From assembly GCA_951406725.2 (NCBI GenBank), contig OX597843.1, positions 6,138,001-6,202,000 on the forward strand: a stretch of DNA of 64,000 nucleotides, given 5' to 3'. Below the pieces are notes generated by a model. It was given only the letters and a program-made list of their open reading frames with translations. It was not told the origin of the DNA and did no database searches. Positions 14,690 through 63,472 of the stretch are shown here, piece by piece. Within the stretch, counting starts at the first letter, position 1, and each line of letters begins with the position of its first letter. This DNA is from Octopus vulgaris. Its lineage: Eukaryota. Both the position numbers and the translations under genes were made by a program.

Positions 14690-15445
<756 letters not shown>

Positions 15446-29719: not shown

Positions 29720-31190
29720 GGCCAGAGTTCTTTCGTCACACTCCTGTGACCGCATCGGTGGTCCTTTGTTTTCTTATTTGTGTCTCTCCTTTCTAACCGT
29801 CAGCCATTTTGTATTTCTATTGTATGTCTTCATTTGCGCATGCTTATATCTCTCGTTCATGTGTTTACATCCGTATGTATAACAACAATACTAGTAATAA
29901 TAATAAATCAAAAAAATTATATATTTGTCTATATTGTAACCAGTTTGTGGGGATCCTCTACCATCATATGTTGTGGTGGGTGCTAGTGTTCCATTCCAGT
30001 TTCCTATTCAGGCTAGGTTCATCTTCTATTATGTGTGTAGCTTCTGTAATTTGTCTGATTGTTGCATCTGTTCTATGTGTGGAGAATATTTTAATTTCTA
30101 TGTTGTTGACTGATCCCCCGTGTTGGTACAGAATCGATGAGCTTTTACCTTCCTTGAGTTGTCTCCAATGTTCATTTACCCGCTCTCCTATGCTTCTTGC
30201 CTGGCTTTTCAACAACCTTAATCCTTAGCTTAAGTTTGTCTAGGGTCCTTCTAAAGCGGTATGCCAGTTCACCTCCAGGGGTGGTGTCAACGAACATGAC
30301 ACTCTGGTATTTATGGCGATCATACCAAGAGGTGGCCTCCCCTATTTTCTTTTTTTGTCCTTTCTATAGTGTTCCATGACTTGTACCTATAGAGTGGGCA
30401 AATCCCATTCCTATCATTACATGATATATTATCAAATTTCTTTATGGCTGTAACCTGAGAACTGCATGCGGTGAATGAAATAATGTATGTGTCTCTTTAA
30501 TTCTGTAAGCTCGCATATGCGTGACACATTTCTCATTATTCTGACGAGGTCTGCCATAAAAATATTGAATTTGGCTGAGTTCCGGTGGATCAAGTATTTT
30601 GAGGCCATAGTATGAATAAAGGATCTGGGTTTTATTATTCACAATTTCTAGCGAGAGTTCAGTGTCTAGTACTGGTAGTCTATTGTTACCTTAATACTCT
30701 GGTGGATGGAGTTAGCTATTTGCTGGAATGCTCTCCATAGTATTAGTTTCTATTATTATATCAACAGTACTCTCTTGTGGGGGTGCCTTTACCACTATGT
30801 TGATATCATCAACATAGCGAGAGTACATGTTAACAAGTATGGAGTTCTGTGTTAGGCGTTCTTTAAGCCTTCTGTCCCACCATACCATGAAAAGGTTGGC
30901 CACATCACCAGCGATACTAACGCCGATGGCTGCCCCCTCGTCCTGGGCATATATTTTATTGTTAAACTTAAACGTGTGGCCTTTTAGGGTAACTCTTATA
31001 CTAGCTCCTAATGCATGTGCGATCATTTTCTTTACCTGATGGACATTTGCGGGGCTCTGGTCCATCCGCGCCATATATATTTGCTAATCCTAGAAGATTG
31101 ATGCGAAGAAGTGAATAAATTATCCGCAAGTCAAAGATGTGTCCTTAATGCTTGCAACAATCCAGACTCTGCTAAATTCACACTAAGGGA
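29720..31190 (-). mobile_element. Penelope-like retroelement relic (RT + GIY-YIG + hammerhead relic)
   Basis: RT FKFNNKIYAQDEGAAIGVSIAGDVANLFM...YSRYVDDI (30712-31074); endonuclease tail (29964-30215); minimal hammerhead-like fold at 29720-29763. Confidence 0.88.
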
Positions 31191-42697: not shown

Positions 42698-44220
42698 CGT
42701 AGTCCTAGGTACACTATGTATGAATAAAAGACGGGATGGTCACAACTGGAACATGTTTTAAATCATAGGTCTGCTGGATCAGGACTGACCTGGGGCTAAA
42801 CAACAAGGGAGGCACATTAGATAATGTAGTCCTAGATACACTATGTATGAATAAAAGACAGGATGGTCACAGTTGGAACATGTTTTAAATCATAGGTCTG
42901 CTGGATCAGGACTGACCTGGGGCTAAACAACAAGGGAGGCACATTAGATAATGTAGTCCTAGATACACTATGTATGAATAAAAGACAGGATGGTCACAGT
43001 TGGAACATCCTTTAAATTATAGCTCTGCTGGATCAGGACTGACCTGGGGCTAAACAACAAGGGAGGCACATTAGATAATGTAGTCCTAGGTACACTATGT
43101 ATGAATAAAAGACAGGATGGTCACAGTTGGAACATCCTTTAAATTATAGCTCTGCTGGATCTAAGCTGACCAGGGGCTAAACAACAATAAGGGAGAACAC
43201 GTTAGATAATGTAGTCCTAGATGCACTATGCCTAAATAAAAAACAGGATGGTCACAATTGGAACATCCTTTAAATTATAGCTCTGCTGGATCAGGACTGA
43301 CCTGGGGCTAAACAACAAGGGAGGCACATTAGATAATGTAGTCCTAGGTACACTATGTATGAATAAAAGACAGGATGGTCACAGTTGGAACATCCTTTAA
43401 ATTATAGCTCTGCTGGATCTAAGCTGACCAGGGGCTAAACAACAATAAGGGAGAACACGTTAGATAATGTAGTCCTAGATGCACTATGCCTAAATAAAAA
43501 ACAGGATGGTCACAATTGGAACATCCTTTAAATTATAGCTCTGCTGGATCAGGACTGACCTGGGGCTAAACAACAAGGGAGGCACATTAGATAATGTAGT
43601 CCTAGGTACACTATGTATGAATAAAAGACAGGATGATCACAGTTGGAACATCCTTTAAATTATAGCTCTGCTGGATCTAAGCTGACCAGGGGCTAAACAA
43701 CAATAAGGGAGAACACGTTAGATAATGTAGTCCTAGATGCACTATGCCTGAATAAAAAACAGGATGGTCACAATTGGAACATCCTTTAAATTATAGCTCT
43801 GCTGGATCAGGACTGACCTGGGGCTAAACAACAAGGGAGGCACATTAGATAATGTAGTCCTAGGTACACTATGTATGAATAAAAGACAGGATGGTCACAG
43901 TTGGAACATCCTTTAAATTATAGCTCTGCTGGATCTAAGCTGACCAGGGGCTAAACAACAATAAGGGAGAACACGTTAGATAATGTAGTCCTAGATGCAC
44001 TATGCCTGAATAAAAAACAGGATGGTCACAGTTGGAACATCTCTGATCATAGGTCTGTCTGGATCAGGACTGACCTGGGGCTAAACAACAAGGGAGGCAC
44101 ATTAGATAATGTAGCCCTAGATACACTGTGCCTGAATAAAAGACGGGATGGTCACAACTGGAACATGTTTTAAATCATGGCTCTGCTGGATCTAAGCTGA
44201 CCAGGGGCTAAACATCAACA
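42698..44220. repeat. 127/131-bp satellite, about 12 units, with a 258-bp dimeric higher-order repeat
   Basis: GGATC anchors at 42776, 42903, 43030, 43157, 43288, 43415, 43546, 43673, 43804, 43931, 44061 and 44188. Confidence 0.95.
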
Positions 44221-48744: not shown

Positions 48745-49767
48745 TCTTTTACTCGTTTGCTTGTTTCAGTCATTTTTTACTGTGGCCATGCTGGAGCATC
48801 GCATTTAGTCGAGCAAATCGACTCCAGGACTTATTCTTTGTAAGCCCAGTACTTATTCTATCGGTCTCTTTTGCCGAACCGCTAGGTTACGGGGGACATA
48901 AACGCACCAGCATCGGTTGTCAAGCAATGTTGAGGGTGTGTGACAATCAGACACACCAACATATACACATATATACGACGGGCTTCTTTCAGTTTCCGTC
49001 TACCAAATCCACTCACAAGGCATTGGTCAGCCCGAAGCTATAGTAGACGACACTTGCCCAAGGTGCCACGCAGTGGGACTGAACCCGGAACCTATTATAT
49101 ATATATATACATATATACTCTTTTACTTGTTTCAGTCATTTGACTGTGGCCATGCTGGAGCACTGCCTTTAATCGAGCAACTCGACCCCGGGATTTATTC
49201 TTTGTAAGCCCAGTACTTATTCTATCGGTCTCTTTTGCCGAACCGCTAGCTTACGGGGGACATAAACGCACCAGCATTGGTTGTCAAGCAATGCTAGGGG
49301 GACAAACACACACACTCATATATATATATATACATATATACGACAGGTTTCTTTCAGTTTCCGTCTACCAAATCCACTCACAAGGCTTTGGTCGGCCCGG
49401 GGCTATAGCAGAAGACCATTACCCAAGGTGCCACGCAGTGGGACTGAACCCGGAACCATTTTCATATATGACAGAAAATAATTTTTGTCTCTTTTTATGG
49501 AAACAGAAGGGTTTATAGGTCTGCAGAAAAGAAATGCTTCAATATGAATGAGACGAAGATAAAGGAACATTGATCGTAGAACAGAAATGAAATTCGAGTC
49601 AACAACTTCATATATAATGGTTGTATACTGTCAATCTAACAAGAACGTGACAGTAGGGGGTACACCACCGTTATATAGCCCTAGGAGGCATCGAACGCCT
49701 CCTGACAGCTTCGGCACATTTTATCCTGTGTCCTTATATACACATACGAAGGGGAGACAAACACCCC

Positions 49768-49851
49768 CAACTGCCGGAACTGCATCTAGGGACACCGTGT
49801 TTCAGGATCATTGTCCTTCATCGGCCTAGAGTAGCAGACACCGGTCAGCTG
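49768..49851 (-). ncRNA. full-length type I hammerhead ribozyme (U4C core variant)
   Basis: CUGC-UAC-UCUAGG CCGAUGA AGGA-CAAUGA-UCCU GAAA CACGGU GUC CCUAGA-U-GCAG; stem I extends via CCGG/CCGG and CAGCUG/CAGUUG. Confidence 0.8.
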
Positions 49852-50366
49852 GCGATATCTGTCTGGACTTCGTATCTGTGTATATCTATAGTCAGTGAAG
49901 TCTATTCACTGATTATCAAAATAAGAAATATTGAGTTTCTAAATCTCTCGTAGAGAGGTGTACGGTGGTGGAGCAATATAATGGTTGTATACTGTCAATC
50001 TAACAAGAACGTGACAGTAGGGGGTACACCACAGTTTGAGGTGTTATATATAAAGTTGTTGACACGAATTTGATGTTTGTTCTATGATTAACGTCCCTTT
50101 ATATATGGAGGAGACTCCCTTCGGTAACTTAGAAAGTTACCCCCCGAGGCACAGAGAAAAATAGTTATAGAAAAACTTATCTTAAACTCAGAAATATTAG
50201 ATTTCTAAATATCTCATAGAGATATGTGCGGTGGTGGGGCGATAGAATGGTTGTATACTGTGAACTTAACGTGACAGTAAGGGAATTACATCACCGCTGT
50301 TTAGCCCTAGGAAGCTAGACGCTTCCTGATGGCTTCGACACATTTCCTCTGTCCTTATATATTTAC

Positions 50367-51576
50367 AGGAGGCGCAATGGCCCAGTGGTTAGGGCAGCGG
50401 GCTCGCGGTCGGAGGATCGCGGTTTCGATTCCCAGACCGGGCGTTGTGTGTGTTTATTGAGCGAAAACACCTAAAAGCTCCACGAGGCTCCGGCAGGGGA
50501 TGGTGGTGATCCCTGCTGTACTCTTTCACCACAACTTTCTCTCACTCTTACTTCCTGTTTCTGTTGTACCTGTATTTCAAAGGGCCGGCCTTGTCACTCT
50601 CTGTGTCACGCTGAATATCCCCGAGAACTACGTTAAGGGTACACGTGTCTGTGGAGTGCTCAGCCACTTACATGTTAATTTCTCGAGCAGGCTGTTCCGT
50701 TGATTCGGATCAACCGGAACCCTCGTCGTCGTAACCGACGGAGTGCTTCCATTTCAAAGGGCCGGCCTTGTCACTCTGAATATCCCCGAGAACTACGTTA
50801 AGGGTACACGTGTCTGCGGAGTGCTCAGCCACTTACACGTTAATTTCACGAGCAGGCTGTTCCGTTGATTCGGATCAACCGGAACCCTCGTCGTCGTAAC
50901 CGACGGAGTGCTTCCATTTCAAAGGGCCGGCCTTGTCACTCTGAATATCCCCGAGAACTACGTTAAGGGTACACGTGTCTGCGGAGTGCTCAGCCACTTA
51001 CACGTTAATTTCACGAGCAGGCTGTTCCGTTGATTCGGATCAACCGGAACCCTCGTCGTCGTAACCGACGGAGTGCTTCCATTTCAAAGGGCCGGCCTTG
51101 TCACTCTGAATATCCCCGAGAACTACGTTAAGGGTACACGTGTCTGCGGAGTGCTCAGCCACTTACACGTTAATTTCACGAGCAGGCTGTTCCGTTGATT
51201 CGGATCAACCGGAACCCTCGTCGTCGTAACCGACGGAGTGCTTCCATTTCAAAGGGCCGGCCTTGTCACTCTGAATATCCCCGAGAACTACGTTAAGGGT
51301 ACACGTGTCTGCGGAGTGCTCAGCCACTTACACGTTAATTTCACGAGCAGGCTGTTCCGTTGATTCGGATCAACCGGAACCCTCGTCGTCGTAACCGACG
51401 GAGTGCTTCCATTTCAAAGGGCCGGCCTTGTCACTCTGAATATCCCCGAGAACTACGTTAAGGGTACACGTGTCTGCGGAGTGCTCAGCCACTTACACGT
51501 TAATTTCACGAGCAGGCTGTTCCGTTGATTCGGATCAACCGGAACCCTCGTCGTCGTAACCGACGGAGTGCTTCCC
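50367..51576 (+). mobile_element. SINE family D (tRNA-like head) with five extra tandem 165-bp tail units
   Basis: A box TGGCCCAGTGG and B box GTTTCGATTCC; repeats start at 50751, 50916, 51081, 51246 and 51411; 10-bp TSD ATATATTTAC (50357-50366, 51577-51586). Confidence 0.92.
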
Positions 51577-52128
51577 ATATATTTACGAAAGGGAGACAAA
51601 CTCCCCCAGCAGCCAGGTCTGCATCTAGAGACACGCATGTTTCAGGGTCTTCTCTATATTTCTAAACACTATTTAAATCTATTTATCTCACCACTCTCAC
51701 TATTTGACAAGTATTCACTATATTTTATCTGCTATATATATAGCTCAATATCAAACCTGGGTCCCAAACCGTTAATTCGTTAACCATTGGTTAAACGTAG
51801 TTAACATTTTCGTGAACGGTTTAATTTTCAAGTTAACTTTGGAAATCATTATCGGACTAATTAACTTCCGTTAACTCAAGTCAACTTGAGTTAACTTCCT
51901 TTAACTGAAGAACGGTGACGTGAAACTCTTGGGTTCGAGTTTGTATAGATTCTTTCGGTTTCAATAAAGAGTATTTTACTCTATCTTCGGTATTCGAGCA
52001 CTAATTTTACCAACTTGTTTTGCATTTGTGTGCTTATTTATGTGTATGTGTGCGTGGGTGTGTGTGTGTGTGTGTAAAGATAGATAAATAGATACATATA
52101 CAGATGGAGAGATAGATAGATAGACGGG

Positions 52129-62778: not shown

Positions 62779-63472
62779 AAAAGACAGGATGGTCACAGCT
62801 GGAACGTCTTTGATCATAGGTCTGTCTGGATCAGGACTGACCTGGGGCTAAACAACAGCAATAAGGAAGGACACATTAGATAATGTAGTCCTAGATACAC
62901 TATGTCTGAATAAAAGACAGGATGGTCACAGCTGGAACGTCTTTGATCATAGGTCTGTCTGGATCAGGACTGACCTGGGGCTAAACAACAGCAATAAGGA
63001 AGGACACATTAGATAATGTAGTCCTAGATACACTATGTCTGAATAAAAGACAGGATGGTCACAGCTGGAACGTCTTTGATCATAGGTCTGTCTGGATCAG
63101 GACTGACCTGGGGCTAAACAACAGCAATAAGGAAGGACACATTAGATAATGTAGTCCTAGATACACTATGTCTGAATAAAAGACAGGATGGTCACAGCTG
63201 GAACGTCTTTGATCATAGGTCTGTCTGGATCAGGACTGACCTGGGGCTAAACAACAGCAATAAGGAAGGACACATTAGATAATGTAGTCCTAGATACACT
63301 ATGTCTGAATAAAAGACAGGATGGTCACAGCTGGAACATCTTTGATCATAAGTCTGCTGGATCAGGACTGACCTGGGGTTAAACACTATGCCTGAACCAT
63401 AGACGGGATGGTCACAACTGGAGCATCTTTGATCAGAGGTCTGTCTGGATCAGTCTGACCTGGGGCTAAACA
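62779..63472. repeat. 133-bp satellite, same family as 42698-44220
   Basis: AAGACAGGATGGTCACAG at 62781, 62914, 63047 and onward; about 4 near-identical units plus a degenerate end. Confidence 0.95.

Follow-up and report, generated by a model that had tools for sequence, protein, structure and literature searches.

A protein-free hammerhead repeat of Octopus vulgaris, likely a non-LTR retrozyme moved by Penelope-like elements

A 364-bp repeat in the genome of Octopus vulgaris combines a type I hammerhead ribozyme with the absence of any recognisable protein and with the insertion footprint of Penelope-like elements (PLEs), and it is very probably a non-LTR retrozyme that depends for its copying in trans on an autonomous PLE and its reverse transcriptase/GIY-YIG protein. 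We consider it likely to be a retrozyme moved by PLEs because its dispersed copies carry the PLE insertion footprint. The link between PLEs and retrozymes, previously drawn from co-occurrence and phylogeny, would thereby gain direct genomic evidence from dozens of near-identical young insertions.

The element, referred to as subfamily A, lies in a 64-kb stretch of contig OX597843.1 (positions 6,138,001 to 6,202,000, the window), together with an older relative, subfamily B, and with a repeat family unrelated to A that we call family 3. Unit positions (q) are counted along the reverse complement of window 49612-49975, with q1 at 49975, the hammerhead at q125-208 and its predicted cut at q185/186.

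49612..49975, minus strand: full unit of subfamily A, 364 bp, 97-99% identical to full units on many contigs
49612, minus strand: 3' end of the A unit, a tail-less fixed end abutting ATAT and shared with 63 of 142 A arms
49768..49851, minus strand: type I hammerhead fold with the U4C core CCGAUGA, predicted cut 49791/49790
49921..49975, minus strand: 55-nt "tail" segment (unit positions 1-55) with two small hairpins
49976..50036, minus strand: 5'-truncated partial tandem A copy (unit positions 304-364), same insertion as the full unit, 98% identity
49477..49617, minus strand: family 3 arm flanking the A insertion, 84% to locus L057
50040..50102, plus strand: second, inverted arm of family 3, 94% to locus L057
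50184..50366, minus strand: subfamily B, 3' part and tail, 92% to B copy L041
50367..51576, plus strand: SINE-like insertion of 1.2 kb that splits the B copy
51577..51651, minus strand: subfamily B, 5' remainder, 92% to L041, similarity ending at 51651

The region reads as a set of nested insertions, namely a young A copy enclosed by an unrelated repeat, and an older B copy that a SINE has interrupted. The original prediction had described it as a decayed local array, in which a unit of 364 bp recurred and then appeared a third time in diverged form. Just 61 bases of the unit recur, however (49976-50036, 98%), and TRF lists no array there; they belong to a single continuous arm of 425 bases (50036-49612) that runs from q304 to q364 of the next unit, and the 147 bases following the recurrence (50037-50183) are unrelated to the A unit. 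What had been taken for the third unit inserted separately and earlier; it is SINE-split, with 78-83% identity to A and 92% to intact B. Copies about 99% identical to the main one lie on many other contigs, and the three "units" are separate insertions that differ in age. The half-hammerhead noticed in the third unit is indeed present: the B copy is truncated inside hammerhead stem II, and the 3' half of the ribozyme alone is left (51619-51643).

The SINE-like insertion is bounded by a 10-bp target duplication (50357-50366 and 51577-51586), and its 3' part has a period of 165 bp (5.9 copies, 99% identity) within this one target duplication, which could be due to repeated priming at insertion, local amplification or an assembly artefact. 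Reading by eye, we take it to contain tRNA-type A and B boxes; ARAGORN found no tRNA for it. The A insertion sits between the two inverted arms of family 3, a family that also occurs at L057-L070, apparently has two alternative ends on (TA)n and lies close to a PLE reverse transcriptase (RT) fragment in L058/L059; it is possibly another PLE 3' end. To the left of the element (48775-49469), other short repeats unrelated to the A unit are duplicated at a spacing of 364-365 bp, which looks equal to the A unit length by coincidence. Elsewhere in the window there are two related tandem arrays with units of 127-133 bp (42699-44218, 11.9 copies; 62779-63385, 4.6 copies), an 84-bp repeat resembling coding sequence for C2H2 zinc fingers (14789-14946) and, far from the element, a weak PLE reverse transcriptase match (30796-31011, E 1e-6).

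The hammerhead on the minus strand (49851-49768) has the layout originally claimed for it, with stem I (49830-49825 and 49790-49785) interrupted by a UAC/U bulge, the core at 49824-49818, stem II from 49817-49814, the loop CAAUGA at 49813-49808 and GAAA from 49803, and C17 falls at 49791, in line with the cut site foreseen. None of 200 shuffles folds as well (z -4.39), and no other match to the hammerhead pattern occurs on either strand of the window. The Rfam search put forward as a check did not recover it, with nothing at the gathering threshold across the window and nothing at E≤10 in 49500-51800. In the minimum-energy fold of the A hammerhead the core CCG pairs with CGG of loop III and stem III is not formed; this core-sequestering fold and the U4C core, which is the norm in subfamilies A and B, may cause A to cut poorly. 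The U4C change "considerably decreases activity in vitro", yet suffices in a viroid (PMC3088659). Stem III is palindromic, with no hairpin when alone and a predicted self-duplex of -9.3 kcal/mol in A and -12.5 in B, and would be compatible with dimeric cleavage (PMC4209133). Circular monomers predicted for five units from four subfamilies gave z values of -7.2 (window unit), -9.5, -8.6, -6.9 and -5.0 against 100 shuffles each.

For covariation, 14 hammerheads chosen to span six subfamilies were compared at 11 pairs (stem I and the 3-8 core pair). In this set 93.5% of the cells were paired, a level that none of 500 shuffles attained, and double changes were seen in 10 of the 11 pairs, which is the covariation among genomic copies on which the original prediction had been staked. 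Since related sequences can beat shuffles anyway, the weight is carried by the slid controls, which were 24-47% paired, and by the exchange of the C3-G8 core pair for U3-A8 in three rows of the alignment, U3-A8 being a known natural hammerhead variant (PMC4209133). Stem II stands outside the pair count because the alignment misregisters it in subfamilies C, E and F; by eye its pairs change in step too, and the UAC bulge and the CAA...A loop II are kept across the aligned hammerheads. Judged from sequence, the hammerhead in the 364-bp unit is real and selection acts on the ribozyme. Other motifs resembling a hammerhead, whose stem III loop reads CUCAGA/CUCUGA, occur at L114:2760-2900, L075:178-251, L007:3254-3327 and L045:961-1034, in small repeats unrelated to the A family.

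The genome searched comprises 2.80 Gb in 227 contigs. With the A unit (GC 45%) as query at least 141 matches were obtained, and among the best 40 of 1690 candidates, which were scored, the best full units are 97-99% identical and lie on many contigs. An A-specific 24-mer has 148 exact matches in the genome, 100 of which were listed, and its control none. Full A units differ by 1.4% on average (406 pairs), and copies are spread over most large contigs with a maximum of 2.4 units per copy; by these sequences subfamily A is young. The longest ATG frames in the doubled unit encode 34 aa (sense) and 70 aa (antisense), so the reported lack of a recognisable protein holds. Relatives fall into subfamilies that are about 68-80% alike or less: B (best 40 of 2110 candidates scored), C (354-bp period, about 68% to A, 70 exact matches of the tail motif), D (362 bp, best 40 of 2734 candidates scored) and single examples of E, F and one more. 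Contigs of sequencing runs with three organism labels cover parts of the A unit at ≥90%. The contigs of six runs that cover the unit are blind to strand, ends and circles, a circle junction being identical to a tandem DNA junction, and the depth of the A unit relative to the neighbouring SINE, a poor measure, was not higher in presumed-RNA runs than in two large unlabelled runs.

The manner of insertion was read from 78 A loci, all distinct (29 chosen because they hold a full unit, with a duplicate dropped, 14 from the 24-mer matches, with 16 repeats omitted, and 35 more that were retrieved), in which 142 arms were counted at ≥90% identity. On one of two fixed 3' sites, 55 bases apart, lie the ends of 125 of these arms: 63 stop at q363-364/1 and 62 at q50-57, where the tail segment ends and forms a second fixed 3' terminus, and 17 stop elsewhere. 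A (TA)n flank with at least three AT repeats adjoins 112 of the 125 site-ending arms, and 57 of the 78 loci contain an inverted arm. Where both outer ends fall on a site, one is tailed and the other tail-less in 46 of 48 loci (p 4e-12 against a coin toss); the two exceptions are tail-less at both ends and none is tailed at both, and nine inverted loci have an off-site end. Subfamily D, whose tail measures about 60 nt, follows the one-tail rule in 10 of 13 multi-arm loci (25 loci), and in two B loci both ends appear to carry a tail. The 5' ends of the A arms are scattered, without clear enrichment at the cut site (4 against an expected 1.4, p 0.06-0.07), and a stronger cluster at unit positions 226-236 is TA-rich and lies beside the selecting motif. 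Two-arm junctions overlap by 1-5 bases in 30 of 51 cases, as given by BLAST ends and partly by chance.

PLEs have been described as inserting into microsatellites in the form of partial tandems, together with a truncated copy in inverted orientation and often with a tail of 30-40 bp on one of the ends (Craig et al., 2021, PMC8557442), and the protein of the anole PLE Poseidon cuts and extends both strands of AT-rich DNA, its two start points within the RNA marking the limits of the tail (Frangieh et al., 2024, PMC11167929). To this published footprint the A insertion pattern corresponds in its sequence features. The choice offered by the original prediction, a retrozyme or a Penelope pLTR, turned out to be a false one: a retrozyme-type unit without an ORF stands, but it inserts with the full PLE footprint. 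On sequence grounds the A family has the characters of a non-LTR retrozyme and those of PLE insertion, and lacks the ORF.

Under the proposed mechanism, a tandem copy would be transcribed on the hammerhead strand, and two hammerheads, having a palindromic stem III and a U4C core, would likely cut slowly as a dimer to release a monomer that a host ligase circularises. At a (TA)n site both strands would then be nicked by a PLE protein, and reverse transcription would begin on each strand from its own internal site, the two sites lying 55 nt apart, after which the two cDNAs would run back across the cut site, stop variably and join head to head, giving a tailed and a tail-less arm. The allocation of one site to each strand is unlike the findings of Frangieh et al., where the start site did not differ between strands (PMC11167929). 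A 364-nt RNA with two base-precise start sites would represent a minimal test substrate for PLE reverse transcription, both for circular versus linear template and for one start site per strand.

With respect to the template, 41 of the 142 A arms are longer than one unit, the longest having 857 bases (up to 944 in D), and 85 cross the cut site (78 once, six twice and one three times). Tandem A arms with two or more cut sites number seven of 142, and the window locus has one hammerhead. Arms of the same insertion carry matching lineage alleles in 125 of 136 site comparisons, against 42 mismatches expected between loci, and several of the 11 exceptions fall in poorly aligned pieces; this agreement would be compatible with a circle or with a homogeneous uncleaved multimer. 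A variant that shares the probability of the proposed explanation, and is in itself plausible if short of probable, has the PLE mobilise a linear, uncleaved read-through transcript with no circle, the hammerhead being weak or serving another step. In vitro the anole PLE used mainly uncleaved RNA (PMC11167929), a finding that speaks for the multimer rather than the circle; the U4C core and self-blocking fold of A and the crossing of the cut site by so many arms point the same way. Against it, no A locus is long enough to be an obvious master (three units were found in none of the 78, and the 100 listed 24-mer matches include no three in succession spaced 364 bp apart), core and stems are kept by compensatory change across subfamilies, and abundant circRNA arises from mussel repeats of this size (PMC7229834). 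The absence of three-unit loci leans toward a circle or re-priming, and we judge the circle to be the template by a slight preference over the uncleaved multimer. Carrying the retrozyme explanation further, we tentatively envisage a cephalopod lineage of at least six subfamilies, whose template is a self-cleaved circular RNA of 364 nt and whose copying enzyme, a dimeric Penelope protein, primes on opposite target strands, a single time at each of the two internal sites; the one-tail rule would be the fossil of this process, and U4C might lock the A core and shield the circle from re-cleavage.

Intact PLEs are abundant in the genome. Partners were sought with the GIY-YIG family and one PLE RT fragment, the best 150 of 6136 and 150 of 7826 candidates being scored. 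One PLE encodes a 781-aa ORF with matches to GIY-YIG (E 4e-7) and, just under the cut-off, RVT_1 (E 1e-6), and its pLTR has a U3-A8 minimal hammerhead, a tail of about 37 nt and (TA)n targets; the young 781-aa family at L101:1906-5590 also has a separate upstream ORF of 360-480 aa without convincing Pfam match. A family with an 884-aa ORF (L261-L262, G000:C10:97806000-97826000) forms three head-to-tail copies of 6.2 kb with a CCGACGA minimal hammerhead, and its pLTR also ends on (TA)n; another retrozyme relative lies in (TA)n at the end of this array. Among 79 sampled GIY-YIG/PLE-RT loci from the best-scoring PLE families, no pLTR sequence shared with A-D was found by blastn and a four-unit profile, the only three matches each being a free-standing relative beside (TA)n or beyond the PLE end. 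The genome-wide search originally suggested for cleaner arrays and for linkage to a Penelope RT yielded dispersed copies, but no long array among those examined and, when six PLE ORFs were compared by tblastn with the window and 120 element loci, no ORF adjoining the A unit. In L009 and L010 an apparent ORF linkage was rejected as chance proximity: (TA)n and other repeats separate the tail from the ORF, at a distance of about 690 and 450 bases respectively.

That the A unit is the pLTR or the 3' end of an ORF-bearing PLE whose full-length copies were missed is improbable. The footprint is the same as that of PLEs, PLE pLTRs carry hammerheads (PMC4209133), and PLE copies are mostly 5'-truncated, with the partner search extending to the best candidates given above; but the arms run unit after unit with nothing between, over 857 bases in A and 944 in D, which makes 364 bp the repeating unit, no ORF adjoins it in the loci compared, and its hammerhead is fully canonical where those of the sampled PLEs are minimal. 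Inversions also arise by LINE twin priming. This and the partial tandem layout would suit a satellite-type repeat formed by DNA recombination, or a LINE-carried SINE, with the hammerhead as a passenger, a very improbable reading that is largely refuted by the one-tail rule (46 of 48), the copies being dispersed in no more than 2.4 units and the window A copy having neither poly(A) end nor target duplication. Two alternative 3' ends, one per arm, are in addition a PLE feature (PMC11167929, PMC8557442).

In a search of mostly open-access literature we found no report of a cephalopod or octopus retrozyme, although the supplement of PMC7229834 may list cephalopods, nor of a non-autonomous PLE footprint for retrozymes; in the main text of a paper annotating octopus repeats, neither ribozymes nor retrozymes are mentioned (PMC13282606). 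Metazoan non-LTR retrozymes are non-coding units of 150-450 bp with a GC content below 50%, for which PLEs were named a strong candidate mover (Cervera and de la Pena, 2020, PMC7229834). Subfamily A resembles them, and especially the 350-390-bp repeats of mussels, in unit size, GC content, a canonical type I hammerhead whose stem III is short and palindromic, a self-paired predicted circle and co-occurrence with PLEs (PMC7229834). It differs in having at most 2.4 units, compared to up to 62-mers in coral (PMC7229834), in its frequent inverted arms and two fixed 3' ends, and in the U4C core of A and B. With PLEs it shares partial tandems, an inverted 5'-truncated arm, an optional tail, AT-rich targets and a hammerhead upstream of two start sites, but it is without ORF, and it has a tail of 55-61 nt instead of 30-40 and a full canonical instead of a minimal hammerhead. 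MRC1 and other non-autonomous Chlamys elements of Chlamydomonas are likewise non-autonomous PLEs with pLTR-like and head-to-tail insertions; their 3' end is generally similar to that of the partner, and canonical hammerheads are missing from their clade (PMC8557442). Vertebrate retrozymes have been argued to be non-autonomous PLE derivatives from co-occurrence, phylogeny and pLTR similarity, and eight of nine predicted frog retrozymes failed to cleave in vitro (bioRxiv 10.64898/2026.07.22.740005). The relationship proposed there is the same as ours, which, with no sequence link to a pLTR found, is drawn from the insertion footprint.
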